NCBI GenBank assembly: GCA_949493535.1 | Contig: CASZWJ010000001.1 | Span: 140,850 to 204,849 of the forward strand | From: an uncultured Alphaproteobacteria bacterium | GTDB lineage: Bacteria; Pseudomonadota; Alphaproteobacteria; RF32; CAG-239 | Direction of reading: 5' to 3' | Length of the DNA: 64,000 nucleotides | Part shown: one piece after another, positions 1,583 to 58,495 of the stretch | How positions within the stretch are numbered: position 1 is the stretch's first letter | Layout: the number at the start of each line of letters is the position of its first letter | Notes under the pieces: model-generated | What the model saw: the letters and a program-made list of their open reading frames with translations, nothing else | Databases searched by the model: none | What the model was told of the DNA's origin: nothing | Position numbers and translations under genes: made by a program

Positions 1583-1614
1583 GTGTACTCATTTTGTACA
1601 CTTAGGCATCTAAG
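1583..1614 (+). repeat. partial GTAC-core hairpin element (copy H)
   Basis: GTGTAC-tcatttt-GTACAC forms a 6-bp stem from two GTAC palindromes, adjacent to a small hairpin CTTAGgcatCTAAG. Matches the core of the dispersed family described in the findings. Confidence 0.45.
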
Positions 1615-2135: not shown

Positions 2136-3170
2136 TTAAATCTCGTCCCAGCCTTCGACAGCGGTCGATTGGTTATAAGAAGAAACGTTCGCTTCAAAGA
2201 AGTTGCCCTTAACATTGCCTTCGCCGTTGGTGTCGGAAATCTTTTCCAGATTTTTATACGGCGTTTCGTTAAACCCTTCATAAATCGGTTCCAAACCGAT
2301 TTCTTTGAGGCGTTTGTTGGCCATAAACTTGGTGTATTGCTCAATTGTCTGCGGCGTAATGCCTAAAATCTGGTCGCCGATAATATGGTTGCTCCAGGCG
2401 ATTTCCTGTTCGGTAGCTTTGCGGAACATTTCGTAAATTTCATCATCATTAAAAAACTGCGGGCGTTCTTTGCGGATTTCTTTGATGATATTGGCGAAGA
2501 TAACACAATGGGTCAGCTCGTCTCGGTTGATGTATTTGATTTCATCGGCCGTGCCGATCATAAGCGAGCGGGCAGCCAGATTATAAAAGAAGTTAAATCC
2601 GTTGTAGAAATATAAACCTTCCAACAGAAAATTGGCGACTAAAACGCGGGCAAAATTCACGTCATTGCGGTCATCGATGAATTTCTGATAGATTTCGGCA
2701 ATATATTTGTTGCGTTCGAGCAAAACTTTGTCTTCACGCCAGCGGTCATATATTGTTTCACGCTTTTCGGCGGGAATAATGCTTTCGATAATATAAGCAT
2801 AGCTTTGGGAGTGCACGGCTTCCTGATAAGTCTGGATAGCAAGAATAAGATTGACTTCCGGTGCGGTGATATAATCTGAAATGTTTGGCAGGTTATTGGT
2901 TTGGATACTGTCCAAGAAAACCAGGAAAGACAAAATGCCGTCATAAGCGTTTTGTTCGGCCGGTGTCAGTTCATCGTAGGCGCGTTTGTCGTCAAACAGG
3001 GAAACTTTTTCGGGAATCCAAAAGTTTTCCATCATCAGGCGGTAAAGCTTGTTTGCCCATTGGTATTTGACATTGTTCAGGTTAAACAGGTTCGTGACAT
3101 TTCCGGCAATCATTTTTCTTTGCAGAACATCATCGTTACCGTCAATATTAAACAGTTTTTTTCTTTGCAT
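2136..3170 (-). CDS. nrdB: ribonucleoside-diphosphate reductase beta subunit (class Ia)
   Basis: 344 aa ferritin-like R2 protein with EAVHSQSY and the C-terminal ...EGWDEI tail. Sits directly downstream of nrdA on the same strand. Confidence 0.9.
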   Translation of the reverse strand: MQRKKLFNIDGNDDVLQRKMIAGNVTNLFNLNNVKYQWANKLYRLMMENFWIPEKVSLFDDKRAYDELTPAEQNAYDGILSFLVFLDSIQTNNLPNISDYITAPEVNLILAIQTYQEAVHSQSYAYIIESIIPAEKRETIYDRWREDKVLLERNKYIAEIYQKFIDDRNDVNFARVLVANFLLEGLYFYNGFNFFYNLAARSLMIGTADEIKYINRDELTHCVIFANIIKEIRKERPQFFNDDEIYEMFRKATEQEIAWSNHIIGDQILGITPQTIEQYTKFMANKRLKEIGLEPIYEGFNETPYKNLEKISDTNGEGNVKGNFFEANVSSYNQSTAVEGWDEI

Positions 3171-3191
3171 TCTTTTATTTCCTTTATCTTC

Positions 3192-5583: not shown

Positions 5584-6861
5584 GTGATGTTAAAAAAGTG
5601 GTGGCAGTCCGCAGAAATATATTTTGACCGCCGGATGTTGACAATGGTCGGTCTGGGTTTTTCCAGCGGATTTCCTTTTTTGCTGGTCAGCGGCACTTTG
5701 GCACTTTGGCTGACCGAGTCCGGAATCGGTCTGGAAATGATAGGCCTGTTTTCTTTGGTTAAAACGCCATATAGTTTTAAATGGCTGTGGTCGCCTGTTG
5801 TAGACCGAATCCGCCTGCCTTTTTTTGACCGGCTGGGGCGCCGCCGCGGCTGGGCATTTTTTTCGCAGCTTTTATTGCTTTCGGCAATTTTGGGAATGTC
5901 TTTGGTTAATCCCGCTCAAGCCGTGTATTTGTTGATGTTTCTTGCTTTTCTGACAGTTATCGCTTCGGCAACGCAGGATATTGCGCTGGACGCTTATCGT
6001 GTGGAAGCTTTTGACAATAAAGAACAGGCTGCCGGAACGGCAATTTTTATTTTGGGCTACCGGCTCGGGTCAATTTTTTCAGGTGCGGCGGCTTTGCTTT
6101 TGGCAACGGTTCTGAGTTGGCATGAAGTTTATGCTGTTATGGGCTTGGGTGCGGTTATCGGCATGGTAACAATCTTGAAATCCAGAGAACCAAAAAACTG
6201 CAAAGAATGCGGCGCGCCGTTTCAAGGCAGCCTGCTTGAACGTCTGTCCAACTTTTGGCGGACGGCGGTCAAAAGCCCGATTGCAGATTTTTTGAATCGC
6301 CCCGGCTGGTTTTGGGTCTTGTTGTTTATTATGATTTATAAGTTGTGCGATGCCTATATGGTGCCGATGACAATGCCTTTTTATGACGCAATGGGTTTCA
6401 GCAAAGAACAGATTGCTTTTGTGACGAAATTTTACGGTATGGCGGCGACAATCGGCGGCGGTATTCTGGGCGGCATTATCGTCAACCGCTGGGGAATCGT
6501 GAAGAGCTTATATCTGGGCGGCATTTTGCAGGGGCTGACGACTTTGATGTATGTGGCTCAGGCGTATTCCGGCAACAATATATATGTGTTAATGGGTACG
6601 GTTTCGTTGGATAATCTGGCCGGCGGCATGAGTACGACAGCTTTTGTGGCTTATATTTCTTCTTTGTGCAATGTGGCTTATACCGCGACCCAATATGCGT
6701 TGCTTTCTTCCTTTATGTCTTTGGCACGCGATTTGCTGGCTTCGACTTCCGGCGCATTGGCTAAAGCCGTCGGGTGGAGCAATTTTTTCATTATTACAAC
6801 CCTAATGGCGATACCGGGGATATTGCTTCTTGTTTATCTTCAACGCCGCTATAGAATTTAG
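5584..6861 (+). CDS. ampG: AmpG-family MFS muropeptide permease
   Basis: 425 aa, about 12 TM segments. The N-terminal region (LGFSSGFPFLLVSGTLALWL...KWLWSPVVDR) is typical of the AmpG/PAT family. Confidence 0.7.
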   Translation: MMLKKWWQSAEIYFDRRMLTMVGLGFSSGFPFLLVSGTLALWLTESGIGLEMIGLFSLVKTPYSFKWLWSPVVDRIRLPFFDRLGRRRGWAFFSQLLLLSAILGMSLVNPAQAVYLLMFLAFLTVIASATQDIALDAYRVEAFDNKEQAAGTAIFILGYRLGSIFSGAAALLLATVLSWHEVYAVMGLGAVIGMVTILKSREPKNCKECGAPFQGSLLERLSNFWRTAVKSPIADFLNRPGWFWVLLFIMIYKLCDAYMVPMTMPFYDAMGFSKEQIAFVTKFYGMAATIGGGILGGIIVNRWGIVKSLYLGGILQGLTTLMYVAQAYSGNNIYVLMGTVSLDNLAGGMSTTAFVAYISSLCNVAYTATQYALLSSFMSLARDLLASTSGALAKAVGWSNFFIITTLMAIPGILLLVYLQRRYRI

Positions 6862-6888
6862 GGGCTTGACTATATACTTTTCATGCTA

Positions 6889-6938
6889 GGGATTTTTTCG
6901 TTCATGTACCGGTTTTGTACACATCTCTCAAAAATCCC
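6889..6938 (+). repeat. GTAC-core hairpin element (copy G)
   Basis: Outer stem GGGATTTTT (6889-6897) pairs with AAAAATCCC (6930-6938), enclosing CATGTACcggttttGTACAC (6903-6922). Located in the 3' region of ampG. Confidence 0.6.
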
Positions 6939-6985
6939 GTCGCAGCAAAAGCATCTATTCAAGCCAAGGAAGGATAGAGGTTTTT

Positions 6986-7876
6986 TTAAGCCTTGTCGGG
7001 AAGCCTTCCGTATATTTTATCGCTCAGCCAATTGGGTAGTATTGAAACCAGCCAGGTTGCAAAACGCAATTGCCACGGGAAAGCGATAATGCCTTTGTTT
7101 TTCTCAATGCCTTTGGCAATGATTTCCGCCGCTTTGTCCGCTTCCATAAAGAAAGGCATCGGGCAGGTGTTCTGGTCGGTAATGCGGGAACGGACAAATC
7201 CGGGGCAGACAACATTAACGTTAATCCGTTCTTTTTTGAGTTTTAGCCGCATTGCTTCTCCCCATGCTTTGACGCAGGCTTTGCTTGCGCTGTAAGACGG
7301 GCAGGTCGGCAAGCCGTGATATCCGGCGATAGAGCTGACAATCGCAACGGAAAGGCTGTCTTCATGAAAAAACTCCACGCCCGATTTTCCGAGGTGCAGG
7401 CGTTGCCAGAACGGGATATAAAACGCCTTCTTCTCTTTTTTCTTTTTATTGATAAATTTATCAAGCGACGAAGCGTTTTCCTCTTGTGCTTTGACATGTT
7501 TCCGATAATCGGCTATTGCCGGCAGAACCGTATTTAACACGCCGCCGACGTTTGTTTCAAAAGTTTTGTAAATCGAATCCGTATTTTCGTTAATTGTGCC
7601 GATGCCGGCGTTGGCTATGACAATATTTAAAGCCGCTTTTTGATTGCATTCGGCAATCCATTCTTCCATGGTATTGCGGTCGGTAACGTCGATGATTTTT
7701 GCAAATACGGCAGCGCCGAGATTGCGGCATTTGTTTTCGACGATGTTCAGCCGGTCACCATTGCGCCCGCAGATGAACAGGTTTTTGGCTTCCGTTTTGG
7801 CATAATGCAGGGCCAAAGCTTCGCCGATGCCGGATGTGGCGCCGGTGATTAAAATATTTTTGCGGCGGTTTGTCAT
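6986..7876 (-). CDS. SDR-family oxidoreductase
   Basis: N-terminal TGATSGIGEALA Rossmann motif; YSASK catalytic motif present. Carries an internal lysine-rich insertion (NKKKKEKK). Confidence 0.8.
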   Translation of the reverse strand: MTNRRKNILITGATSGIGEALALHYAKTEAKNLFICGRNGDRLNIVENKCRNLGAAVFAKIIDVTDRNTMEEWIAECNQKAALNIVIANAGIGTINENTDSIYKTFETNVGGVLNTVLPAIADYRKHVKAQEENASSLDKFINKKKKEKKAFYIPFWQRLHLGKSGVEFFHEDSLSVAIVSSIAGYHGLPTCPSYSASKACVKAWGEAMRLKLKKERINVNVVCPGFVRSRITDQNTCPMPFFMEADKAAEIIAKGIEKNKGIIAFPWQLRFATWLVSILPNWLSDKIYGRLPDKA

Positions 7877-11712: not shown

Positions 11713-12822
11713 ATGAATCCAAAGTCAATATTGGGCCGTTATCTGGCCAAGCAGATTATTTATAATTTCATCGCTGTGCTGTTAATGGTGCTGGGTGTGG
11801 TTTTGCTGTTTGAAGTCGTTGAGCTGCTGCGCAAAGCTTCTAACCGCGAAGACGTGACTTTTTGGTTTATTATGGAAATGGCCTTGACCAAAATGCCGCG
11901 AACGCTGGACATGGTTTTTCCGTTTGTGATGATGATTGCGGCAATGGTAACGTTTTGGCGGGTGAGCAAAACAAACGAATTTGTCGTTATCCGTGCGGCA
12001 GGCGTTTCCATTTGGGGCTTTCTGACGCCGGTTTTGTTTGCCGTCTTTGCTCTGGGCGTGCTGAATATTACGGTTATGAATCCGATTGCGGCAAAAATGT
12101 ATGAGATTTATGAAACGCTGGATTACCGTTTTGATACCCGAAATCCGAATGCCGTTTTATTCTCGGACAAGGGTTTGTGGACGAGGGAAGCGCTTGATGA
12201 AGATACGTTTCAGGTTATGCAGGCGAAATCTGCCCGGCAGGAAAATGACGATTCATTGTTTTTGCGTGATGTAAGCATTCTGGAAATGAACAGAAAATCT
12301 CAGCCCGAACGACGGATTGAGGCTTTTGTGGCAACGCTGAACGACGGTTATTTTGACTTGAAAGACTTGAAAATTTATGCCGCCGGAAAGCCGGTCGAAA
12401 CCTTAAGCAGCCTGAAATATAAAACGGCTTTGACCGTTGACCGCATTAAAGAAAATTTTGTTGAGCCGGATGCCATTTCTTTTTGGGATTTGCCGGGGAC
12501 AATCAGTTTTTATGAACATTCGGGCTTTTCGGCCTTAAAGCACAAGCTGCGTTATTATTCGCTGCTGGCTTCTCCGTTTTTGTTGTGTTCAATGGTGTTG
12601 GTGGCGGCCGTTTTTGCTTTGCGCCCGAATAATCGCCGCGGCGGCGTTATGTTTTTGATTGTCGGCGGCATTTCAACCGGTTTTGTCGTTTATTTCCTTT
12701 CGCAGCTGATTTATGCTTTTGGCTTGAACGGGGATATTCCCGGCGTTTTGGCGGTATGGACGCCGACGCTTATCGCGACTTTGGTAAGCGTGTCTCTGCT
12801 GCTTCATTTGGAAGACGGTTAA
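11713..12822 (+). CDS. lptG: LPS export ABC permease, LptF/LptG family
   Basis: 369 aa, YjgP/YjgQ-type topology: 3 TM, a large periplasmic domain, then 3 TM. N-terminus ILGRYLAKQ is typical of the family. Confidence 0.75.
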   Translation: MNPKSILGRYLAKQIIYNFIAVLLMVLGVVLLFEVVELLRKASNREDVTFWFIMEMALTKMPRTLDMVFPFVMMIAAMVTFWRVSKTNEFVVIRAAGVSIWGFLTPVLFAVFALGVLNITVMNPIAAKMYEIYETLDYRFDTRNPNAVLFSDKGLWTREALDEDTFQVMQAKSARQENDDSLFLRDVSILEMNRKSQPERRIEAFVATLNDGYFDLKDLKIYAAGKPVETLSSLKYKTALTVDRIKENFVEPDAISFWDLPGTISFYEHSGFSALKHKLRYYSLLASPFLLCSMVLVAAVFALRPNNRRGGVMFLIVGGISTGFVVYFLSQLIYAFGLNGDIPGVLAVWTPTLIATLVSVSLLLHLEDG

Positions 12823-12907
12823 AGAAAACCCGTCTGGCGGGTATACGGGGCGTTTTGGCGGTGTCGTTTTCTTGAGTGTCTCTTGTATACTCTGAGGTTG
12901 CGCTTCT

Positions 12908-12923
12908 GAAATCACTCTATATC
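12908..12923 (+). repeat. solo right-arm of the dispersed element (copy F)
   Basis: GAAATCACTCTATATC matches the right terminal repeat of copies A/B/C. No convincing left arm is seen. Confidence 0.4.
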
Positions 12924-13108
12924 TCATGTTATTCGAGTTTTTCTAATCGGTTCATATATATTTGAAATGTTTTAAGTGAGAATTTATGAAAATAGTTAAG
13001 CTTATTTCTTAGCGGATTGTTTTTTTATTTCTATAAGATATAAAAAATGCTGGATTTTTAAAAAGTTTTCTGTTATATCTCTTTACAGAATTGATAATAT
13101 TAGATGAG

Positions 13109-15867: not shown

Positions 15868-18336
15868 ATGACAGAAGATAATGCAAAAAATAAATTAACA
15901 TTATCAGGAAAATCTACCCTGACGCTGAAATTGGGCGATAAAGCCAAATCGGTAAATAACGAGGGTAAAAAAGTTGTTCAGGTTGAGGTTCGCAAAAAGA
16001 GAATTATCAATCCCTCAACCGTCGGTTCGGAGCCGAAAGTTAAAATTGATGACGCAACGGCGGCAAAGCTTCGTTTGATTGCCGAAGCCAAAGAGCATGA
16101 GGCCAGACGCCGTCAGGAAGAGGAAGAAAAAGCCATTGCCCGCCAGAAACAGCAGGAAGAAGACAAACGCCGCCAGGAAGAAGAAGCAAAAGCCTTAGCT
16201 GCCGCTAAAGAAGCCGAAGAAGCAGCACGTGCCGCCGCGGCTAAACAGAATGCCAAAAAAGACGATTTTGCAGAAGCTTCGGCTGAAGACAGATCCTTTA
16301 AGGCAAAAGAAAAGAAATCTAAAGATTTTGATGATGACGATGATGAAAATGTTTATCACAAGAAAACAGTTGTTTCTCGTGACGATTCATTTGAACAAGA
16401 TCGTAAAAAGGTGACCAAACGCAGTTTTGAGCCGCAAAAACGCAATGGCGGAAAATTTAGCGTTCATAATATTATGGGCGATGATGATGACGACGATTAC
16501 GGGTTCGGCGGACGCAGACGTTATAAGAAAAAACAGCCGAAACAGCAGCCGGTTCAACAGCAGCCTCAGGAAAAAATCATTCGCGAGGTTATTGTTCCCG
16601 AAGTTATTACCGTTCAGGAACTGGCTAACCGTATGGCTGAAAAAAGCGCCGATGTTATCAAAAAATTGATGGCTTTGGGCGTGATGGCGACCATTAATCA
16701 GCCGATTGACGCTGATACGGCTCAGATTGTGGTTGAAGAATTGGGGCACAAGGTTAAACGTGTGGCTGACAGCGACGTCGAGCTGGGTTTGGAAGGCAAA
16801 GAAGACCAGCCGGAGGACTTGTTGCCGCGTGCGCCGGTCGTGACCGTTATGGGACACGTCGACCATGGTAAAACTTCTTTGCTTGACGCTTTGCGCGAAA
16901 CTAACGTTGTTGCCCGCGAGGCCGGTGGTATTACCCAGCATATCGGTGCTTATCAGATTACGGTTCCGACCGGTGATAAGATTACGTTTATTGATACGCC
17001 GGGTCACGAAGCTTTTTCAGAGATGCGCGCCCGCGGTGCCAAAGTAACGGATATTGTGGTTTTGGTTGTGGCCGCCAATGACGGTATCATGCCGCAAACG
17101 ATTGAAGCTATCCGCCATGCTCAGGCAGCGGAAGTTCCGATTGTGGTGGCAATTAACAAAATCGATTTGCCCGGTGCTGATCCTATGAAAGTCAAAACAG
17201 CTTTGTTGCAACATGGAATTGCCGTTGAAGAAATGGGCGGCGATAGTTTATGTGCCGAGGTTTCTGCCAAAAAGCGCATGAATATTGACAAGTTGGTCGA
17301 AGCTATATTGTTGCAGGCCGAGATTTTGGATTTGAAAGCTAATCCCAACCGCAAAGCAGAGGGTGCCGTTGTTGAGGCCAAAATGGAAAAAGGCCGCGGT
17401 TCCGTTGCTACCGTTTTGGTTCAGAGGGGCAATCTGAAAATCGGCGATATTATCATCGCCGGCAAGGAATGGGGACGTGTCCGCGCGATGTTTAACGAAC
17501 ACGGCAAGAAAATTTTTGAGGCAGGTCCGGCTACGCCGGTTGAGGTTCTCGGTTTGCAGGGCACGCCTGCTGCCGGTGATGATTTCATTGTTGTTGCCGA
17601 TGAGACTCAGGCCAAGCAGGTTACCAATTACCGTATTTGTAAAGAGCGTGATGCCAAGATTGTTAAATCGGCAAAATCAGCTATGGAACAGATGCTTGAT
17701 AAAATTAAATCAGGCGAATCCAAGCACCTGCCGATTATTATCAAAGCCGATGTTCAAGGTTCGGTCGAGGCTTTGGAAGGAACTCTTAACAAGCTGTCTA
17801 CGAGTGAGGTTGATGTTCAGATTTTGCATTCTGCCGTCGGTCCGATTTCCGAATCTGATATTTCTCTGGCAAAAGCTTCCAACGCGTTGATTATCGGTTT
17901 TAATGTCCGTGCCATTCCGCAAGCCCGCGATGCGGCTCGCCGTGACGGTATTGAAATTAAATATTACTCAATTATCTATGATGTTGCCGATGACGTGAAG
18001 AAAGGTTTGGAAGGCATGCTTTCTCCCGAACTGAAAGAAAAACTGCTCGGATATGCCGAAATTCGCGAAGTATATAATATTACCGGCGTTGGCAAAGTTG
18101 CCGGCTGTATGATTACCGAAGGTATTGTCCGCCGCGGAGCAAAAGTCCGCCTGCTGCGTGATAACGTCGTTATTCATGACGGTTCGTTAGGACAGCTCAA
18201 ACGTTTCAAAGAAGACGTTAAAGAAGTCCGTGAGGGTTATGAATGCGGTATGAGTTTTGAAAACTACAACGACATTCAAAAAGGCGACTTTATTGAGTGT
18301 TATGAGATTGAGGAAATTGCCGCAAAACTTTCATAA
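15868..18336 (+). CDS. infB: translation initiation factor IF-2
   Basis: 822 aa. GTPase motifs [17 protein letters not shown]. The N-terminal region is Lys/Glu/Ala-rich with poly-Asp tracts. Confidence 0.95.
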
Positions 18337-18360
18337 CGGCCAACTAATACAGATTTTGCG

Positions 18361-18410
18361 GGTTGAAAGTGTCCTCTCGTACTTTTATGTACGCTCCGGT
18401 ACTTTCACCC
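18361..18410 (+). repeat. GTAC-core hairpin element, subfamily 2 (copy D')
   Basis: Outer stem GGTTGAAAGTG pairs with TACTTTCACCC, enclosing CGTACttttatGTACG. The inner stem differs from copy E by a compensatory T-A to C-G change. Confidence 0.55.
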
Positions 18411-18458
18411 TGAAATCTTATTATTTATTTCGTTCTGAAAATTTTGCATGCAAGTTCG

Positions 18459-18511
18459 TCTAGCGGTTTTCTGAGCGATTTTACGGTGATGATAAAAATC
18501 ACTCTATAAAT
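18459..18511 (+). repeat. collapsed copy of the element (terminal arms only, copy D)
   Basis: TCTAGCGGTTTTC + CTGAGCGATTTTAC sits directly next to AAAATCACTCTATAAAT. The central GTAC core is missing, so the left and right arms alone form a hairpin. Confidence 0.5.
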
Positions 18512-18562
18512 TCCACTATCCAAACTTTCATAGTTTGGCTCTAATGTAAAAGGTAAAAGAAT

Positions 18563-19069: not shown

Positions 19070-20020
19070 ATGGCTAACAAAAATGAAAAGCGTGAGGTTT
19101 ATGTCTGCAAAAATGATGAGGGAAACCGCAGCGTATTTGTTTATCAAAACGGTGAACGCTATTTCGGGCGTCTTTGCCGAATTTCTGATAACAGTGTAAT
19201 TCTTGAGTGGAATTTTGATGCTTATTTCTGTTTGGATAATTATTTTCTTTATCTGACAGGGGACAATTGGTTCTGCTTTAAGTTAGAACCGGAAGCACGT
19301 ACCGTTTATTTAGGACGCCGGTTGGCTGAAACGTTCTACGTTCATGAAAATGAAGCGGGTATGGTGCATTATGCTTATTTCGACTATGACGGAGATTATT
19401 GTTTGTTGGAGAGCAATGCTTTGCGGGTGGAAAAGGGCTATCATCGCGGTTCAAATGAAGAATGTATCCTGGTATTTGAAAAAGTAAAATTCTGCAAAGT
19501 CTTTTATTTGGCTCCCTGGGGTAATTGGATTGATCCTGTTCACTTCTTTTCTTTTATGAATGAGTGTAGCGGATATTTTTCTGTTGAAGCCGGAGAGCAG
19601 AATACACTTTATGGGCTTTTCTATGACGAAAAAGACGAAGGTTATCATCTGCTTCACACGGGAAAAAATTTGAGTCTGTTTCGCAATGCTTTTGTAAATA
19701 AGGAAGGAGATAAGTTTAACCTTTATCTCTATGACGGAAAGGAGCTTGTTGCAGCGGAAGAAGGAAGCCGTTTCTTTCAGAATTCCGAAGGGCTTGTTCT
19801 TGATGACAAATTTTGGGCTTGCCGAGATGATATTTTGGATATGCTTAATCTGAATATGCTGGATGTGCCTGAAACCATTGCTGAACAGTTTGCAGGGGAT
19901 AAATCTGGAGATGCCGTCTCTGTTGTTGACGAATCAGAGCCTTCTCCGGAACCTCGGCCAAAAATCGGATTTTTCCGCAGATTGCGCCGTTGGTTGGATT
20001 TTGGAAAACGAAGCCGGTGA
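19070..20020 (+). CDS. hypothetical protein (316 aa, aromatic-rich)
   Basis: Long ORF with coding-like codon usage. I recognise no family. No obvious SD. Inserted between rbfA and pyrE/truB. Confidence 0.45.
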   Translation: MANKNEKREVYVCKNDEGNRSVFVYQNGERYFGRLCRISDNSVILEWNFDAYFCLDNYFLYLTGDNWFCFKLEPEARTVYLGRRLAETFYVHENEAGMVHYAYFDYDGDYCLLESNALRVEKGYHRGSNEECILVFEKVKFCKVFYLAPWGNWIDPVHFFSFMNECSGYFSVEAGEQNTLYGLFYDEKDEGYHLLHTGKNLSLFRNAFVNKEGDKFNLYLYDGKELVAAEEGSRFFQNSEGLVLDDKFWACRDDILDMLNLNMLDVPETIAEQFAGDKSGDAVSVVDESEPSPEPRPKIGFFRRLRRWLDFGKRSR

Positions 20021-21961: not shown

Positions 21962-22231
21962 ATGTCGATTACTAATGAAAAAAAACAAGAATTAATCAAA
22001 ACTTATGCTATTAATCCGAATGATACCGGTTCTCCGGAAGTTCAGATTGCTATTTGGACTGCCCGTATCAACAGTTTGATTGAGCATTTCAATACTCATG
22101 CAAAAGACAAACATTCTCGTTTGGGCTTGATGAAAATGGTTTCACGCCGCCGTCACCTTTTGGACTATCTGAAAGGCAAGAGCGAGAGCCGTTATCAGGA
22201 AATCATTAAAAAACTGGATCTCAGAAAATAA
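21962..22231 (+). CDS. rpsO: 30S ribosomal protein S15
   Basis: 89 aa, typical S15 sequence ...[22 protein letters not shown]...[14 protein letters not shown]. Confidence 0.95.
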
Positions 22232-22253
22232 TCAGGGAATCGTTTTTATGCAG

Positions 22254-22345
22254 TATCTAGAGCGATTTTACGCCGTCTCAAAAAATTCATGTACCCAAAT
22301 GTACACTAAAATTTTTTTCGCGACTAGAAATCACTCTATCTATCA
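22254..22345 (+). repeat. full-length ~90-bp nested palindromic intergenic element (copy A)
   Basis: Left arm TCTAGAGCGATTTTA (22256-22270). Core hairpin AAAAAATT-c-aTGTAC-ccaaat-GTACAct-AATTTTTT (22280-22317). Right arm AAATCACTCTATCTAT (22328-22343), which is the inverted complement of the left arm with one mismatch. Confidence 0.7.
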
Positions 22346-22387
22346 GCTTAAAAACAATTCTGCTTGGTTAGAAGATAATTAAAGGGT

Positions 22388-22416
22388 GCGGGGCGCTGGC
22401 TCCGCTTTCCTTTTAT
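22388..22416 (+). terminator. possible rpsO terminator/attenuator
   Basis: GC-rich hairpin GCGGggcgctggctCCGC followed by TTTCCTTTT. Confidence 0.35.
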
Positions 22417-22457
22417 AAAAAAATCCTTGGTTTTCAAGGTGAGGAATATGGGCTTAG

Positions 22458-22499
22458 CTCTTAGGCAAGAGCATTGAAAAAGATGCTTTTTCCTAAGAG
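22458..22499 (+). promoter_or_regulatory. pnp leader hairpin (candidate RNase III autoregulatory site)
   Basis: CTCTTAGG-caag-AGCAT-tgaaaaag-ATGCT-tttt-CCTAAGAG. A long bipartite stem about 45 nt upstream of the pnp ATG, analogous in position to the E. coli pnp leader. Confidence 0.5.
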
Positions 22500-22541
22500 G
22501 TAAGTCCGGAAGATGTAAAAATGTTATAGAAAGGATATCGT

Positions 22542-25355: not shown

Positions 25356-25646
25356 ATGTCTGATATTACATTTAATGCAATGAAACGTGAGAAAGCAGGT
25401 AAGGGGGCAGCTCGTGCATGTCGTCGTGAGGGTCGTGTCCCTGCAGTTATTTATGGCGGCAACAAAGATGCCATTATGATCAGCCTTAACCCGGTTGAAC
25501 TCGAAAAAGCTTTGGATATGGTCGGCTTTTACGATGCTGATATTGAAATCGTTTTAGACGGCAAGAAACACAGCGTTGTTTGTCAGGATGTGCAGTTTCA
25601 TCCTGTGTCTGACGCGCCGATTCACGTCGACTTTTTAAGAAAATAA
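25356..25646 (+). CDS. rplY: 50S ribosomal protein L25 (short form)
   Basis: 96 aa. MSDITFNAMKREKAGKGAARACRREGRVPAVIYGG is the L25 signature. Confidence 0.85.
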   Translation: MSDITFNAMKREKAGKGAARACRREGRVPAVIYGGNKDAIMISLNPVELEKALDMVGFYDADIEIVLDGKKHSVVCQDVQFHPVSDAPIHVDFLRK

Positions 25647-25680
25647 GTCATATTTTGGCTTATTAATACGGAAATTGCGG

Positions 25681-25728
25681 GGAGAAAGTTTCCTCATGTA
25701 CGTTTATGTACACTCCGGTACTTTCTCC
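25681..25728 (+). repeat. GTAC-core hairpin element, subfamily 2 (copy E)
   Basis: GGAGAAAGT pairs with ACTTTCTCC (9 bp), enclosing CATGTAC-gtttat-GTACACT-ccgg-TAC. Three GTAC units sit at 10-bp phasing. Confidence 0.6.
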
Positions 25729-25821
25729 CTTATTTCTTATTACTAAGCTCAAACTCTGACTTATTTTCAGCGGCTTATTTTCAAATCCTGCGTGTCAGGG
25801 TTTTTTTGTAGAAAGTTAAAA

Positions 25822-27621: not shown

Positions 27622-27708
27622 TTTAGAGCGATTTTACATTGTTTCAGAAAATCCATGTACTTCTTTGCACACTGGGATTTTCTTCGTAATTAGAAATCAC
27701 TCTATATC
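27622..27708 (+). repeat. full-length nested palindromic intergenic element (copy B)
   Basis: Left arm TTAGAGCGATTTTAC (27623-27637). Core GAAAATCC-aTGTAC-ttcttt-GCACAct-GGATTTTC (27647-27682). Right arm GAAATCACTCTATAT (27693-27707). Stem bases co-vary relative to copies A and C. Confidence 0.7.
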
Positions 27709-28250: not shown

Positions 28251-29612
28251 TTATCTTCCAGTGTCCCTTTGAGCTTTGAATGCGTCAATGCGGATTTTAC
28301 GTTCTGCATTTCTGTTTTGTTCAAAGGTTTTTTCATCAATGCCTTTTTCAGAAGCTTTCTTTTTTCTTATTTCAGCAACTTTAGCCTCATTGCGTTGTCT
28401 TCTTAAGGCGCTTTCGAGGTGGCGGGGTTGTTTCTTTAAGTCGTCTTCCTCAAGAGTTGTGCTTAATTTCACTCCTGATTCTAAAGCAGCAATGTTATAG
28501 TATGTTTGCATGTTTTTGTTGAACATGGTTACATCCATAACTTCATCCGGAGAATTGGTTTTATGGTCATTAATTTTTTCTCTGACGGCATTAAGCTCTT
28601 TTGCATCGTTTAATACAGCCTGAATTTGCGGGTCCGTGATGCCGTTGAGTTCTTCTGCTGTCGGAGCATTTTTTACCTTTATACCGGCCATTTGAGCGGC
28701 AGCAAAGTAAGTTGCTTTATCTTTTATGTCTGTATAGGCGCCCAAATCAAATTCTTCGCCCGGTTTGTCCATTTTGTGGTCAAGAGTGTCGCTCCATGCG
28801 TTAGCATAGCTGACAGGCTCTTTTTCTTCCGTTTTCGGGGCTTTGTCTGCTTCAGCCGTTTTTTCTTGATTTTCTGCGCCTTCGGATGCTTTTGTTTTAG
28901 CGTCGTTGACCATATCCTGAAGTTCTTTCGGCCATTGAGACATTTCTTCTTCAGTCGGGCCGTTTACGGGATTAGCGCCGTTTATGTAGCAAGCCGCCAG
29001 AAGTTTTGCTTTAAATTCAGGTGATTTTATATCGCCGAATTCAATGTCCGGACCGTTTTTCTTCATGGCAAGAGCAACGGTCTGTTCAAAATATTTGTTG
29101 TCAGGCGTATTGCCGTTGTAACCTTTTAAAGTGACATTATGCGGGCTTTTGTAGCTGATTTGGGCTGCATATTCGCCGTTATTTTTCTTATCTTTACTGT
29201 CATACAGGCGGATACAAACGTCATTTTCGGAGCCGGCTATATTTATATCTTCAAACTCTTTGTCGTTGTCTGTAGCCCATTGGCGCCATTCATTTTTGTA
29301 GTCTTCTTTCCAGTTGTCGTATACCGGTGTTTCGGCACCCTCAGATTCTTTGGATTCATGCGTATTTTCATTGCCGGGATTATCATGGTCGCTGATAGTC
29401 GTTCCCTGGTTTTCTTTATTATCAACATTGGCAGAACTGTCTTTTTTTTCAATTGAAAGATCTTCGATTTTGATCCTATCGACGATTTGGCTCAATTCTC
29501 CACCTTCTTTTATGGCGGCTTCAATGGCTTCTTTCAGTTTAGTGTCATCCCATTCTCTGCCATCAGGAAGTTTAAGTGCGCTTTTAACATCATCAAAAGA
29601 TATGTCAGCCAT
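28251..29612 (-). CDS. hypothetical acidic protein (453 aa)
   Basis: Long ORF, strongly acidic and K/E/D-rich (low complexity). No signal peptide. I recognise no domain. C-terminal basic coiled-coil-like tail. Confidence 0.5.
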   Translation of the reverse strand: MADISFDDVKSALKLPDGREWDDTKLKEAIEAAIKEGGELSQIVDRIKIEDLSIEKKDSSANVDNKENQGTTISDHDNPGNENTHESKESEGAETPVYDNWKEDYKNEWRQWATDNDKEFEDINIAGSENDVCIRLYDSKDKKNNGEYAAQISYKSPHNVTLKGYNGNTPDNKYFEQTVALAMKKNGPDIEFGDIKSPEFKAKLLAACYINGANPVNGPTEEEMSQWPKELQDMVNDAKTKASEGAENQEKTAEADKAPKTEEKEPVSYANAWSDTLDHKMDKPGEEFDLGAYTDIKDKATYFAAAQMAGIKVKNAPTAEELNGITDPQIQAVLNDAKELNAVREKINDHKTNSPDEVMDVTMFNKNMQTYYNIAALESGVKLSTTLEEDDLKKQPRHLESALRRQRNEAKVAEIRKKKASEKGIDEKTFEQNRNAERKIRIDAFKAQRDTGR

Positions 29613-40620: not shown

Positions 40621-40657
40621 AATATTATTTCTTTCCTAAATGGTCGTCATGTCATGA

Positions 40658-40701
40658 TTTTGATAACCTCGTGTACTGTTTTGTACACGTCGGTATCAAA
40701 A
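40658..40701 (+). repeat. GTAC-core hairpin element (copy I)
   Basis: TTTTGATAAC pairs with GGTATCAAAA, enclosing the perfect palindrome CGTGTAC-tgtttt-GTACACG. Lies in the typA upstream region. Confidence 0.55.
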
Positions 40702-40842
40702 TTATTTCCAGCACAACCATTTATCAAAGAAATGGCGGCTTCATAAATCTGACATGAAATCTAAAATTCGTTCCTAACATACCAAGATAAAATTAAATTA
40801 CAAGAATTTAGTATAAAAATTTGTCGTTTTTTCTTTTACAGA

Positions 40843-46580: not shown

Positions 46581-46871
46581 ATGACTATTAAACCTCTTCA
46601 GGATCGTGTCCTGGTTAAAAGACTTGATGAAAACACCAAAACGGCCGGCGGCATTATTATTCCCGATACAGCAAAAGAGAAGCCGAGCGAAGGCATTGTT
46701 GAAGCCGTCGGTTCGGGAATGGTTACTCCTGAAGGAAAAGTTATTCCGATGAGCGTTAAGGTCGGCGACAAGGTTTTATTCGGCAAATGGTCCGGTACGG
46801 AAATCAAAGTCAATGGTGAAGACCGTTTAATCATTAAAGAGCCCGAAATCCTCGCAATAATCTCCGAATAA
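46581..46871 (+). CDS. groES: co-chaperonin GroES
   Basis: [35 protein letters not shown]. 96 aa. Confidence 0.95.
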
Positions 46872-46875
46872 TGAG

Positions 46876-46965
46876 CATCTAGAGCGATTTATCGTCGGTT
46901 CGAAAAATTCATGTACTTCTATGTACACTAAAATTTTTCTCACCCCTTAAATCACTCTATCTATC
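46876..46965 (+). repeat. full-length nested palindromic intergenic element (copy C) in the groES-groEL spacer
   Basis: Left arm TCTAGAGCGATTTA (46877-90). Core GAAAAATT-ca-TGTAC-ttctat-GTACA-ct-AATTTTTC (46901-38). Right arm AAATCACTCTATCTAT (46948-63). About 90% identical to copy A. Confidence 0.7.
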
Positions 46966-47024
46966 TCATTCTGCGAAGATTAGAAACGTGAAAGTTTTTT
47001 TTAGATAAAATGGAAAGGAATTAA

Positions 47025-51848: not shown

Positions 51849-52874
51849 GTGAAGTGGGGAAGCGACATGGAAAATAGCGAACAATTCGATTGGCAAAAAC
51901 TAAAAAAACAAATTGGCATTATACGTCTGAAAATCCGTCGGGGCTTACACCGTTTTGATCAAAAATATAAAATCAGACATAACAGCAAGCGTTTAATTTT
52001 GCTGGCGGCATTGAAGACGATTGCCGCTTTGACTCCAGGAAATGCGGCTCAAGCTCAAGAACTTTCTTTGAAACAAGATAAAAACCAGCATAATACCGAA
52101 CTTCTGGCGATGGCTAAGGTTGCCAATTTGGATGCCAGTGTCATTTGGGAGCGCTTGAATGCCTATATTGACGGACGCCAGAAAGATTTTGCTATGAGCT
52201 TATCTGCCGATTTGGCTGATAATATTGAGACTGTCAAAAACGGTAAGAAAAAAGGGCGTAAGGCGGCGACGTTAAGAGATTTATTCGGTCCGGTCAATAA
52301 TCGTTTTTATTGTTCGATAAGCGGTTTGAAAACAATTGAAGAATTGTCGAAAAGAGAAGGTTATATGGAATATGACTTTCTGTTGAAATGTATTAATAAT
52401 CCGCATTCCTGTCTGAGTGTTATTAATGGTTTGTCAAAATATTACGGTGATGATTGCAAAACATCCGATATTAAAAAGACGCTTGCAGAGCAACAAAAGA
52501 TGAATCCGAACTCAGTGTTTATTGTGTTGATGAATAGCAAAACAAACAGCAGCAGCGGTAAACATTTTGTTATCGTTACGCCGGAATTTGCCGCAGATTC
52601 CGTTGTTTATGTTAATGACAATCCCAAGTTAAAAGTTTATGGCTTTAATTCTGAGGTTATTGCTGATCCGGATACTTATTTTGCCGGGACGAGAAACCGC
52701 GGTCATGTTTATAATTTGACGGAAATGGGGCGCGATAAATTAATTGAACTGTTTTATTCCGGGCATTTAAGCTTGAATCCTCAACAACAAGAAAATGAAC
52801 TTATTCATTTTGAGCCGGTCGGAATGCAGGAAAAACCCCGTCCTTTATCAAAGTCGCGCGGCAGAAGCAGATAA
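51849..52874 (+). CDS. hypothetical protein (341 aa)
   Basis: A 20-nt gap separates it from the downstream dGTPase-like gene. Spaced Cys/His/Asp residues (FYCSISG...GKHFVIV...VYVNDN) are compatible with, but do not prove, a papain-like fold. Confidence 0.45.
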   Translation: MKWGSDMENSEQFDWQKLKKQIGIIRLKIRRGLHRFDQKYKIRHNSKRLILLAALKTIAALTPGNAAQAQELSLKQDKNQHNTELLAMAKVANLDASVIWERLNAYIDGRQKDFAMSLSADLADNIETVKNGKKKGRKAATLRDLFGPVNNRFYCSISGLKTIEELSKREGYMEYDFLLKCINNPHSCLSVINGLSKYYGDDCKTSDIKKTLAEQQKMNPNSVFIVLMNSKTNSSSGKHFVIVTPEFAADSVVYVNDNPKLKVYGFNSEVIADPDTYFAGTRNRGHVYNLTEMGRDKLIELFYSGHLSLNPQQQENELIHFEPVGMQEKPRPLSKSRGRSR

Positions 52875-56759: not shown

Positions 56760-56849
56760 GGAGAGATGGCAGAGTGGTCGAATGCGATTGACTCGAAATC
56801 AGTTGTACTCGTGAGGGTACCCAGGGTTCGAATCCCTGTCTCTCCGCCA
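56760..56849 (+). tRNA. tRNA-Ser (anticodon CGA)
   Basis: 90 nt. Acceptor GGAGAGA / TCTCTCC, anticodon stem ATTGA / TCAGT with loop CTCGAAA, long variable arm, T-arm CAGGG-TTCGAAT-CCCTG, discriminator G and encoded CCA. Confidence 0.85.
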
Positions 56850-56854
56850 TTAAT

Positions 56855-56886
56855 AAAAAACCCCGTCATGTACGGGGCTTTTTATT
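56855..56886 (+). terminator. rho-independent terminator after tRNA-Ser
   Basis: CCCCGT-catgta-ACGGGG followed by CTTTTTATT. Confidence 0.7.
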
Positions 56887-56997
56887 AATGATGAGGGGAG
56901 CTTGATTTGAACCCTGGGAAAAGGGTTCGACAGCAAGCGAGAGCGAGACGGAAGTATCGCGGTCGGCTTTGCCGATGAGCGAAGATGCGGCGAAGCC

Positions 56998-57016
56998 AAT
57001 CCCTGTCTCTCCGCCA
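56998..57016 (+). repeat. 19-bp direct repeat of the tRNA-Ser 3' end (att-like) with duplicated downstream context
   Basis: AATCCCTGTCTCTCCGCCA is identical to 56831-56849. It is followed by a second diverged hairpin (GAAGCCCC.../...GGGTGCTTC) and TTATTGATGAGG, mirroring the sequence after the tRNA. Confidence 0.6.
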
Positions 57017-57180
57017 ATAACAAAAGAAGCCCCATAAGGGTGCTTCTTTTGTTATTGATGAGGTTAAATTCCGGAGAAAGGGCGGCTACAAACAGCAGGT
57101 TGCCGAAAGTCTGCCGGCGGCGTGTACGGCAAGCCGTGCAGTGGTGTTGCCGCCTATCTCTTTCTTTCGCCATTTTGATT

Positions 57181-57212
57181 AAAAAGATGCTTGTTTACAG
57201 CGTCTTTTTTTG
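57181..57212. terminator. bidirectional terminator downstream of the recombinase gene
   Basis: AAAAA, then AGATGC-ttgtttaca-GCGTCT (one G-T pair), then T7. Confidence 0.55.
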
Positions 57213-57259
57213 TGTGTTCGTTAGTAATTCCTGATTTGCGAAGGGCGAAACAGCCGGAA

Positions 57260-57847
57260 TTATCGTTTTAAAAACCGGTGGAGAGTTGACAGGTTAACAT
57301 GGAGATCGTGGGCAATTTTAATTTTCGGTATTTGGTTTGCAATCATGTTTTTTATGATGTTTTCTTTACCCTGCAATTTTGTGGTTTTATTTTTGCTGCC
57401 TTTAGGGCGGCCGATGCTTTTTCCCTCATTGCGCAGGCGTAATAAAGCTTCTTTGGTTCGCGCCGAGATAAGGTTTCTTTCAATTTCGGCACTTAAGCCA
57501 AAGGCAAATGCCAAAACTTTTGACTGGATATCCGCTCCGAGTTTGTAGTTTTCTTTGACAGTCCAGACCTGACAGCCTTGTTCCAGACAGTGGTGCAGGA
57601 TACTCATGATTTGCATCAGGTTTCGGCCTAAGCGTGACAGTTCAGAGGTTATTAAAATGTCATCGGATTTAAGGTTTTTTAATATCTTACCGAGTTTTCT
57701 TTTGTTCAGTTCTTTTGTGGACGATATTGTTTCGATAATCCAGTGATTGATTTTAAGATTATGCAGATTTGCAAATTTTGTTATTTCGAATTTTTGGTTT
57801 TCAGTATTTTGTTTGTCGGTACTTATTCTGATGTAACTATAAATCAT
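57260..57847 (-). CDS. small serine recombinase (resolvase/invertase family)
   Basis: MIYSYIRISTDKQNTENQ (catalytic Ser region), 195 aa, C-terminal HTH IAHDLHVNLSTLHRFLK. SD AAGGAT 8 nt upstream. Confidence 0.85.
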   Translation of the reverse strand: MIYSYIRISTDKQNTENQKFEITKFANLHNLKINHWIIETISSTKELNKRKLGKILKNLKSDDILITSELSRLGRNLMQIMSILHHCLEQGCQVWTVKENYKLGADIQSKVLAFAFGLSAEIERNLISARTKEALLRLRNEGKSIGRPKGSKNKTTKLQGKENIIKNMIANQIPKIKIAHDLHVNLSTLHRFLKR

Positions 57848-57910
57848 TGCTGCTAATCCTTTGTCTTTTTTATTTGATTAGCATTCTACTATTGATTTGT
57901 GTTATTGAAA

Positions 57911-58061
57911 ATAAACGAACGTTTAATTGAATTATAGTTATATTCTAATATTTTGTCAAGCTAATTAATAATCAAGATAAAAACATAAATAAAACAACAT
58001 GTTAGTTTTTTATAAGAATATTCTGGTCTTTTTATGAAACAGGCAAAATAACGTTCGTTAT
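57911..58061. promoter_or_regulatory. inverted-repeat-flanked ~125-bp segment upstream of the recombinase (res-like site or invertible switch candidate)
   Basis: AAACGAACGTTT at 57913-57924 and AACGTTCGTT at 58050-58059 share a 10-bp inverted core. The consensus promoter lies between them. Confidence 0.4.
57931..57959 (-). promoter_or_regulatory. perfect consensus sigma70 promoter reading toward the recombinase gene
   Basis: Minus-strand reads TTGACA (57959-57954), 17 nt, TATAAT (57936-57931). Confidence 0.6.
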
Positions 58062-58132
58062 TTTGCAATGGAGCAGGAAAGCGGGCGTTGGTTAAAGTGA
58101 AATGTATATAATTTTAAGCAAAGGAAAAACAG

Positions 58133-58495
58133 ATGATTTCTTTTATTAAAAACAATATTTTGACTCTTTGCTGTATGACAATAATGATTTTATTGGGTAC
58201 GGCAGACGGTGCTCTCGCTGCCGGAACCTATGATTTGATGGGTACTGCGCAGATGAAAGCTGTTGCTGTATTCAAATCTGTAAAAACGATTATCTTTGTT
58301 GTCGGCGGTTTCGGTTTGGTTGCTTTGGCTTTCATGGCTATTTTCGGCAAACTGGACTGGAAAAAATTCTCAATGCTGGCTGTCGGTTTGGCTATTTTGG
58401 CTGCTGCCGGCGCTATCGTTGACTATGCAACCGGCGATGATGCTGGAGCGGATTTCAGTGATAGTTTTGGGAAAAGTGCACAGTCGTCGATTTAA
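58133..58495 (+). CDS. TrbC/VirB2-like pilin-type small membrane protein
   Basis: Signal peptide ending ALA-AG, then two hydrophobic segments and an acidic tail. 120 aa. The fold guess comes from topology only. Confidence 0.35.
   Translation: MISFIKNNILTLCCMTIMILLGTADGALAAGTYDLMGTAQMKAVAVFKSVKTIIFVVGGFGLVALAFMAIFGKLDWKKFSMLAVGLAILAAAGAIVDYATGDDAGADFSDSFGKSAQSSI

Follow-up and report, generated by a model that had tools for sequence, protein, structure and literature searches.

A dispersed palindromic repeat family of about 134 nt at gene 3' ends in uncultured gut Alphaproteobacteria

We analyzed a 64-kb stretch of the genome of an uncultured Alphaproteobacteria bacterium (contig CASZWJ010000001.1, positions 140,850 to 204,849; hereafter the window, whose own numbering is used throughout), and found that a hairpin-forming repeat at 22254-22345, between rpsO and pnp, is the core of a larger unit of ~134 nt that belongs to an undescribed family of the bacterial interspersed palindromic repeat kind (REP, ERIC, Correia, RUP). 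The family is lineage-specific, abundant and structurally constrained, with a fixed rule of position and orientation and with clear turnover. It constitutes an undescribed and abundant genome feature of a clade of uncultured gut Alphaproteobacteria sampled from humans, rabbits, ruminants and chickens, and it is located in essential operons (rpsO-pnp, groES-groEL and infB-rbfA), where a predicted RNA rod of 60 bp probably influences how the mRNAs are processed and how stable they are. The original prediction, made from the letters of the window, had proposed a dispersed REP/Correia/MITE-like family; it names the right kind but sets the wrong boundaries, its transposon features are unproven, and it did not include the strict sense orientation, the start at a stop codon, the restriction to the G-rich (leading) strand or the compensatory conservation across species. 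Judging from the sequence, we favor reading the units as non-autonomous, strand-specifically propagated elements that are co-transcribed as hairpins of 3'-untranslated regions or intercistronic spacers, and we give this reading about an even chance of being right.

The three copies on which the family was first proposed (22254-22345, 27622-27708 and 46876-46965) all have the left arm TAGAGCGATTT, the right arm AAATCACTCTA and the apex CATGTAC-N6-G(T/C)ACAC, as had been claimed for each of them. A repeat finder placed them in one 87-nt family, and since the other two copies are 77% and 69% identical to the first over this length, they are similar and not, as first described, near-identical. Their recurrence exceeds chance: the arm motif with at most one mismatch occurs 8 times in the window against 1.76 expected (0/100 shuffles reach 8), for the apex motif CATGTAC-N6-GYACAC the count is 6 where 0.75 would be expected, and the window units each fold as a single long hairpin (z -4.9 to -10.8 vs dinucleotide shuffles).

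Complementarity and conservation run ~27 nt past each arm, which adds two further helices and replaces the proposed size of ~90 bp by ~134 nt. The complete unit is one rod hairpin of four helices that are divided by conserved asymmetric internal loops. The outermost, helix 1, is a variable stem, typically an A-run plus a few base pairs (e.g., AAAAGTTCG/CGAACTTTT), which embeds the upstream stop codon; inside this outer stem lies a semi-conserved box, GTATAAY or GTCTAGY, opposite YTCTCC or CTATCC. Helix 2 is short and variable, and helix 3 is the arm helix, which is 11 bp long and conserved, as is its C.A mismatch or bulge, so that the 11-nt arms, previously taken for terminal inverted repeats, form an internal helix of the rod. 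Helix 4 is a variable inner hairpin whose apex, YGTAC-loop-GTACR, sits beneath a conserved internal loop. The arms keep a nearly constant spacing of 78-82 nt. A motif, (A/T)GTGCC, recurs a few bases past the T-run at the foot in many units (e.g., loci L081, L083, L032, L044 and L061), which suggests that the conserved unit may reach slightly further 3' in some sub-families.

Compensatory changes preserve the fold of the unit. In a structure-blind MAFFT alignment of 72 non-redundant units (A1), 86% of the cells of 47 proposed pairs hold standard pairs, compared with 30-50% when the partners are slid by 1-3 columns; both sides change in 32 of the 47 pairs, and double-change cells number 510 vs 175 in shuffles. 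The apex GTAC also co-varies on both sides (GTAG/CTAC, GTAT/ATAC and TTAC/GTAA) and is therefore a helix, not an invariant string. The middle pair of the arm helix was tabulated for 129 distinct high-scoring units and is C.A in 108, U.G in 7, A-U in 6 and G-C in 4; in several sub-families the two arms have changed in concert. The triplet AAC/GTT shows no conservation, with AAT/ATT and AGC/ACT often in its place. Exact conservation of the arm sequence in 82 of these 129 units would suit a site that is read as duplex DNA in chromosome architecture, with polar binding by gyrase, a nucleoid protein or a replication-linked factor, and so would an orientation that tracks the G-rich strand and a position at the 3' ends of transcription units; a gyrase/nucleoid-type binding role has been proposed for BIMEs in E. 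coli. However, compensatory change extends over three helices and therefore indicates selection on intrastrand pairing, not on duplex sequence, and the start at a stop codon has no obvious duplex rationale, so that we consider such a site very unlikely.

We then scanned one genome per bacterial species for both arms spaced 50-70 nt apart and obtained 86 loci, of which 84 are in metagenome-assembled genomes (MAGs) of uncultured gut Alphaproteobacteria and two are chance matches in Planctomycetes; viral contigs gave no match to the arm pattern. The proposal of a dispersed, multi-copy, nested-palindromic family in 3'-untranslated and intercistronic positions is thereby upheld, and duplication of one local segment, the outcome named in advance as fatal to it, is not what the 84 loci show. 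The MAGs are labeled uncultured Alphaproteobacteria, 'Azospirillum sp.', Azospirillaceae and Candidatus Scatocola (Rhodospirillales, NCBI taxonomy), and come from human, rabbit, deer, sheep and chicken gut. Run on the 84 loci (604 kb, >30 related MAG species), a covariance model built from A1 (R1) gave 255 hits at E<1e-3, corresponding to ~150 distinct units, and scored the sense orientation about twice as high as its mirror image.

The position of the units is set by gene ends. The upstream gene lies on the unit's own strand in 88 of 93 cases. Its stop codon begins at model position -2 to +5, where the outer stem has its foot, in 61 cases. The stop is at exactly +16 in 14 cases, including groES and infB, where the open reading frame (ORF) ends on the unit's own TAA or TAG within the GTATAAY/GTCTAGY box. 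TGA stops are depleted beside units (1/69 vs 78/478, p = 2e-4). An intergenic position was thus rightly claimed, but not that all copies lie outside coding sequences, since the outer stem embeds the stop codon and, at groES and infB, the last codons as well. Pfam assigned the genes preceding units in the window to an MFS transporter, LptF/G, IF-2, S15, L25, YchF and GroES, and those following them to RbfA, PNPase, a SpoU-family methyltransferase and GroEL; elsewhere, inspected translations of preceding genes include EF-G, PNPase, pyruvate kinase, Lon, MutL, RecJ, a BamA-like protein, Era, GlyA and AlaS. Within the window, a unit follows ~1 in 5 of the ~40 plus-strand (leading-strand) genes.

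Canonical terminators lie downstream of the unit behind rpsO (22388-22405, with a T-run) and L25 (25783-25803) in the window and behind pnp in locus L041, and a strict terminator occurs within 110 nt after 20/126 units vs 4/126 random positions. Given these terminators and the stop register, the unit is part of the transcription unit, downstream of the stop codon and ahead of the terminator or next cistron. The units could themselves be regarded as unusually long, possibly bidirectional intrinsic terminators, in keeping with their place directly after stop codons and with an outer stem made of an A-run and a short stem with a T-run opposite, TTTT being present at the 3' foot of 67/126 units (53%). 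This explanation appears highly improbable to us, because the operon-internal window copies (rpsO/pnp, groES/groEL and ychF/SpoU-family methyltransferase) are without the T-run, several units have a separate canonical terminator behind them, genes on the lagging strand rely solely on ordinary terminators, and a closing helix that joins bases 130 nt apart would be kinetically poor for termination.

The units are also bound to one strand. Cumulative GC skew climbs across the whole window, in which all units are on the + strand and none of the ~20 minus-strand genes carries one. Among the loci, a sense unit stands at the stop of 76/371 ORFs on the G-rich strand vs 0/172 ORFs on the other strand (p = 2e-14), and five units between opposite-strand genes retain the orientation of the G-rich strand; up to 11/125 units are in loci with near-zero skew. 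This polarity is strong, but it is not separated from gene orientation by a mapped origin.

Folding has a polarity as well. The reverse complement is more stable than the sense strand in 70/72 units as RNA, in 71/72 with DNA parameters, and still in 61/72 when the two conserved mismatches are repaired in silico. The asymmetry resides in the conserved inner parts, where the sense strand has A.C rather than G.U (143 vs 72) and C.U rather than G.A (52 vs 12), and is absent from the variable outer stem (22 vs 22). Since the sense strand is G- and T-rich outside the units, the asymmetry opposes local composition; mutational bias was rejected as its cause, as a G/T-rich + strand would favor G.T on the sense strand and the opposite is seen. 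Multi-copy small RNA genes transcribed from the reverse strand would agree with mismatches that become G.U and G.A on that strand and with its lower mean folding energy (-57.6 vs -46.9 kcal/mol for the sense strand). Such genes are nonetheless extremely improbable, as the reverse-strand side has no conserved promoter-like sequence, the flanks are unrelated between loci, neither strand matches Rfam, and the products would be antisense to the stop-codon regions of dozens of unrelated essential genes.

The same reverse-strand stability (70/72 as RNA, 71/72 as DNA) and its seat in the conserved inner parts would be expected of a substrate of single-stranded DNA recombination or transposition, whose active form would be the reverse-strand hairpin, handled by a tyrosine recombinase or HUH enzyme in the manner of attC sites, IS200/IS605 elements or REP ends. 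A mismatch or bulge is kept at one arm position across sub-families, conservation is in structure rather than sequence, and the unit stands right after an ORF in fixed orientation with its better-folding strand on the leading-strand template (cf. PMC5371416). On the other hand, the units are flanked not by cassettes but by essential core genes whose synteny is conserved (S15, IF-2, GroES and L25), the outermost helix is variable, unlike the conserved outer R boxes of attC, the AAC/GTT triplet varies, and the window contains no integrase or Y1 transposase that we could find; we therefore regard a substrate of this kind as distinctly unlikely. It is likewise unlikely, if somewhat less so, that a strand-specific single-stranded DNA machinery (recombinase or HUH) reads the rod with its C.A mismatch or bulge and places units at leading-strand stop codons only. 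Were this true, a chromosome-wide attC- or IS200-like system would be colonizing, or have been domesticated at, the 3' ends of core genes across a clade of gut Alphaproteobacteria.

Comparison of equivalent gene ends revealed turnover. The pnp end has a bare terminator in the window and in L027, one unit in L041 and two in L049, and at the lptF/G end the window has a decayed unit where L061 has a bare terminator. Three arm types occur at the L25 end in three species (the window sub-family, another in L027 and an arms-only perfect hairpin in L049), and the ychF end is filled in 7/7 species compared, with 1 to 5 tandem units of differing inner types. At the ychF site of L081, a segmental duplication is accompanied by a further small insertion within one unit. 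A burst in one MAG (CAKQNT) comprises six units that are near-identical even in their outer stems and lie behind unrelated genes, and in L012 a six-unit tandem array (6531-7300, 122-nt period) directly follows a pyruvate kinase-like gene, which could be a real amplification or a MAG assembly artefact. Within the window's own species, the rpsO-pnp unit is nearly invariant (9 conspecific contigs). The repeat will fragment short-read MAG assemblies, and R1 can be used to mark its units.

Several other sequences were observed around the units. An insertion of ~110 nt, starting AATTCCGACTA(A)GGCTTTGCC, splits the 3' half of a unit in L081 (~3054-3188 and downstream) and occurs at the same point in L014 and L027; it may be another small mobile sequence that targets the units. 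In CAKQNT (L008, L035, L042, L059 and L079), the units are followed on their 3' side by a second module, TAGAGATTGTGC, and a near-identical canonical terminator, AAAAAGCTGAAAATTCA-N5-TGAATTTTCAGCTTTTT, and this shared module and repeated terminator therefore point to larger mosaics in that genome. Upstream of rbfA in L041 (600-940) there is no repeat but a G+C-rich stretch with inverted repeats (..CCTCGTCATCCTCGTGCCCGAAGGCCGCAGGCCGAAGG..GAGGATGACAAAA..), unlike the rest of the genome. Other candidate explanations of origin or mobility were tried and set aside: nested insertion of the arms and inner hairpin into an older outer hairpin is unsupported, there being no empty outer modules in 670 kb; a pre-existing terminator stem was rejected as the general origin of the outer stem, whose variable part, only an A-run and 3-4 bp, is too short; and the interval between the opposed units of L070, considered for a RAYT-like gene, holds an unrelated 401-aa ORF between convergent genes.

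Under our favored reading of a non-autonomous, strand-specifically propagated element, copies would be made in trans by a strand-specific activity, in the simplest case one that recognizes a single strand in its folded form, and would persist because the slot between stop codon and terminator is harmless. The sense transcript would fold into a long rod, probably a barrier to 3'-exonucleases or a processing site for an endonuclease of the RNase III type, and the rod may separate the fates of neighboring cistrons (rpsO/pnp, groES/groEL and infB/rbfA).

A number of results weigh against this reading. Pfam searches of essentially all long ORFs of the window (54 in total) found no transposase, and the sole recombinase, a serine resolvase, lies in an unrelated island. 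The boundaries of the outermost helix, which form the true ends and the most variable helix of the unit, have no consistent direct repeat or target-site duplication, although TA stands at both ends of the arms; 670 kb yielded no empty outer module, and no pair of filled and empty sites had alignable flanks. The likeness to MITEs that was first put forward stays an analogy, because target-site duplication, empty outer module and transposase were all not found. An autonomous relative was not found in the sequence examined either, where it was weakly tested. At the ychF, rpsO and L25 gene ends a unit is present in nearly every species, a persistence that speaks for targeting of specific sites or for a host function and not for random transposition. 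At the RNA level, the better-folding reverse strand is not the sense transcript and is not predicted by an RNA role, and a purely mRNA-level role leaves the absence behind lagging-strand genes unaccounted for. The strand call itself uses local GC skew, which is partly a coding-strand effect (mean 0.147 in co-oriented vs 0.034 in anti-oriented genes) and whose sign agrees between these two gene sets in only 27/42 loci.

In the main rival reading, the rod would be a cis-acting RNA element encoded by the host and not mobile, a standard hairpin of 3'-untranslated or intercistronic regions recognized by a lineage-specific RNA-binding protein or nuclease and kept uniform by gene conversion. The sense orientation in 88/93 cases with a start at the stop codon, the filling of the same gene ends across species with locus-specific compensation in the outer stem (e.g., after a 754-aa ORF in L010, L025 and L048), internal loops and a C.A position that stay fixed while helices co-vary, and a place inside the transcription unit upstream of canonical terminators are all consistent with it. 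Its closest analogy would then be the RNase III processing signals between phage T7 genes. Such an element does not account for the 0/172 behind lagging-strand genes, for the six-copy burst in one genome and the tandem arrays, for decayed copies (12819-12946), for units between opposite-strand genes, where a sense transcript would carry the reverse strand, or for the better folding of the reverse strand, and overall we consider it rather unlikely.

Searching the window with R1 with filters off detected at least 8 units, all on the + strand (Table 1). Two copies originally described as core only (18361-18410 and 25681-25728) are complete units of a sub-family with co-varied arms, TAATAC(A/G)GA../..TCTTATTA, in which a bulged C takes the place of the C.A mismatch of the main type. 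A third (18459-18511) was correctly seen as partial: it belongs to a short form that stands in tandem with its full-length neighbor upstream of rbfA and is the only short form in all sequence examined. As for the remaining partial copies, 12908-12923 is part of a decayed unit, 40658-40701 part of a diverged unit, 6889-6938 marginal and 1583-1614 unrecognized by the model. In the marginal unit the inner-hairpin module (6889-6938) is clear and the flanks misfit the model; the hairpin at 1583-1614 is possibly a relic.

Table 1. Repeat units and related hairpins in the 64-kb window, with their scores under covariance model R1
Feature	Position	Strand	Score and folding
Lone GTGTAC-N7-GTACAC hairpin after rplI	1583-1614	+	not reported by model at E<=10
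Marginal unit after MFS transporter gene	6857-6970	+	14.8 bits, E 0.24
Decayed unit after lptF/G; left arm lost, right arm and part of outer module kept	12819-12946	+	39 bits, E 2.5e-8
Full unit at infB stop; sub-family arms CTAATACAGATTT/AAATCTTATTA with bulged C	18318-18450	+	69 bits, E 3e-17; z -7.65
Short form; outer stem and arms, no inner hairpin	18452-18527	+	39 bits, E 2e-8, model positions 8-128
Full unit, rpsO-pnp spacer	22231-22365	+	107 bits, E 3e-28; -31.3 kcal/mol, z -4.85
Full unit after ribosomal protein L25 gene; same sub-family as 18318-18450	25637-25769	+	68 bits, E 7e-17; z -10.8
Full unit directly after ychF stop codon	27597-27731	+	110 bits, E 5e-29; z -6.35
Diverged unit abutting bipA start codon, between two minus-strand genes	40621-40738	+	32 bits, E 2.7e-6
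Full unit, groES-groEL spacer	46853-46986	+	121.6 bits, E 2e-32

The rpsO-pnp unit, flanked according to Pfam by S15 upstream and PNPase downstream, has its arms at 22258-22268 and 22328-22338 and its apex hairpin at 22288-22306, and its outer stem begins at the rpsO stop codon (22229-22231). The unit behind ychF ends 20 nt upstream of the SpoU-family methyltransferase gene (Pfam). In the groES-groEL spacer, the outer stem covers the last codons of groES (Cpn10 by Pfam), whose stop is the element's internal TAA at model offset +16, and likewise the outer stem at infB covers the last infB codons, with the stop at offset +16. The neighbors of the diverged unit are BipA and PfkB (Pfam), and this unit keeps the + orientation. 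Upstream of pnp in the rpsO-pnp spacer (22388-22505 region), a second hairpin, CTTAGGCAAGAGCATTGAAAAAGATGCTTTTTCCTAAG, is present in addition to the terminator-like one and is reminiscent of the RNase III-cut pnp leader of E. coli. Elsewhere in the window, the serine recombinase (Pfam Resolvase N-terminal domain, 195 aa, 57260-57847, - strand) is near a tRNA gene (56760-56846) and a TrbC/VirB2-type pilin gene (58133-58495), and the region 56760-58495 resembles the border, or a remnant, of an integrated conjugative element. Five long ORFs have no Pfam family at E<=1e-5 (19070-20020, 28251-29612 (-), 51849-52874, 59854-61218 (-) and 62393-63343 (-)), one of which sits between rbfA and truB in an otherwise conserved operon.

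We further compared the units with known families. In a search against Rfam 15, only two tRNAs reached the gathering score and nothing at E<=1 overlapped the units on either strand, and a literature search for four arm strings returned chance primer-type matches only; the initial failure to match the repeat to a known family thus holds for curated RNA families. REP, BIME and REPIN sequences share with the present family high-copy extragenic palindromes at gene 3' ends, mosaics, a compensatory hairpin and a suspected spread by way of folded single-stranded DNA. There are precedents for the reading we favor, in that translation is affected by REPs that lie within 15 nt of a stop codon (PMC12306157) and IS608 and ISDra2 target the lagging-strand template (PMC6006769). 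In contrast to a REP, a hairpin of 20-40 nt with a conserved 5' GTAG/GTGG that usually occurs in inverted pairs, our unit is a 134-nt four-helix rod in direct repeats. It has no GTAG signature, neighboring units point the same way, the single opposed pair (L070) encloses convergent genes and not a RAYT gene, and Pfam found no RAYT (Y1 HUH transposase) gene in the 64-kb window.

Correia elements (CREE/NEMIS) of Neisseria are transcribed palindromes of ~100-155 bp in intergenic or intercistronic positions, with TA at both ends and GTAC-rich interiors, and in these respects they resemble the present units. The terminal inverted repeat of Correia elements is 26-28 bp long, TATAGTGGATTAA(C/A)A..., and has four published variants (PMC5039591). 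The proposed likeness stands for ~10 terminal bases (TATAGTGGATT vs TAGAGTGATTT, reverse strand), with only ~9 of 11 terminal bases resembling the arm, but it does not extend further: full-length alignment with a 105-nt element, authenticated by a 100% match in N. gonorrhoeae, scored 21.1 vs 20.9 for controls with arms kept and interior shuffled, and homology was rejected. In the present family, moreover, the similar bases form an internal helix and not the termini, and its ends gave no demonstrable TA duplication, although the arms carry TA at both ends and TGA stops are scarce beside units. Correia elements insert in both orientations. As a side observation from these searches, two 2.17-Mb Neisseria gonorrhoeae records found among plasmids, NZ_CP119140.1 and NZ_CP119142.1, carry at least 40 Correia elements each and appear to be chromosomes filed as plasmids.

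The attC sites of integrons, including VCRs, are likewise imperfect palindromes (57-141 nt) that directly follow an ORF in fixed orientation, conserve structure over sequence and keep helix irregularities. Of their two strands the bottom one folds better and is found on the leading-strand template, as is the case for the reverse strand of our units, an arrangement described for attC sites in large sedentary chromosomal integrons (PMC5371416). However, attC sites have conserved outer R boxes, whereas the outermost helix of the present family is variable and its GTATAAY/GTCTAGY box pairs with YTCTCC/CTATCC; neither the R''/R' boxes nor a conserved AAC/GTT triplet was found in the units. The flanking genes also form no cassette array, S15, IF-2, GroES, L25, YchF and PNPase being core genes in conserved synteny, and the window has no integrase. 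The RNase III signals of phage T7 are similar hairpins with asymmetric internal loops that lie between cistrons in sense orientation, and they leave a protective 3' hairpin on the upstream mRNA. This likeness is in position and shape only, as our unit is 2-3 times longer, chromosomal and dispersed over core genes.

Finally, ERIC/IRU elements (~127 bp) resemble the present family in being a single long imperfect palindrome of ~130 nt, in transcribed intergenic DNA beside ORF ends and conserved across genera. Both occur in shorter and longer forms through internal deletion or insertion (here 18452-18527 vs the 134-nt units), and a transposase is known for neither. They differ in host clade and have no sequence relationship, the ERIC core being absent from the units (ERIC1R and ERIC2 22-mers, 0 matches at <=3 mismatches), and strict sense orientation, stop-codon embedding and restriction to the G-rich strand are not known for ERIC. 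Multiple copies, hairpin potential above chance and polymorphism in site and copy number together give the family the general properties of dispersed structured palindromic repeats, while its orientation rule, stop-codon start and lagging-strand avoidance are sharper than usually reported for REP-, ERIC- and Correia-type repeats. It therefore offers a clean natural case in which to study the targeting of such repeats and to ask if they work at the level of RNA or of folded DNA.

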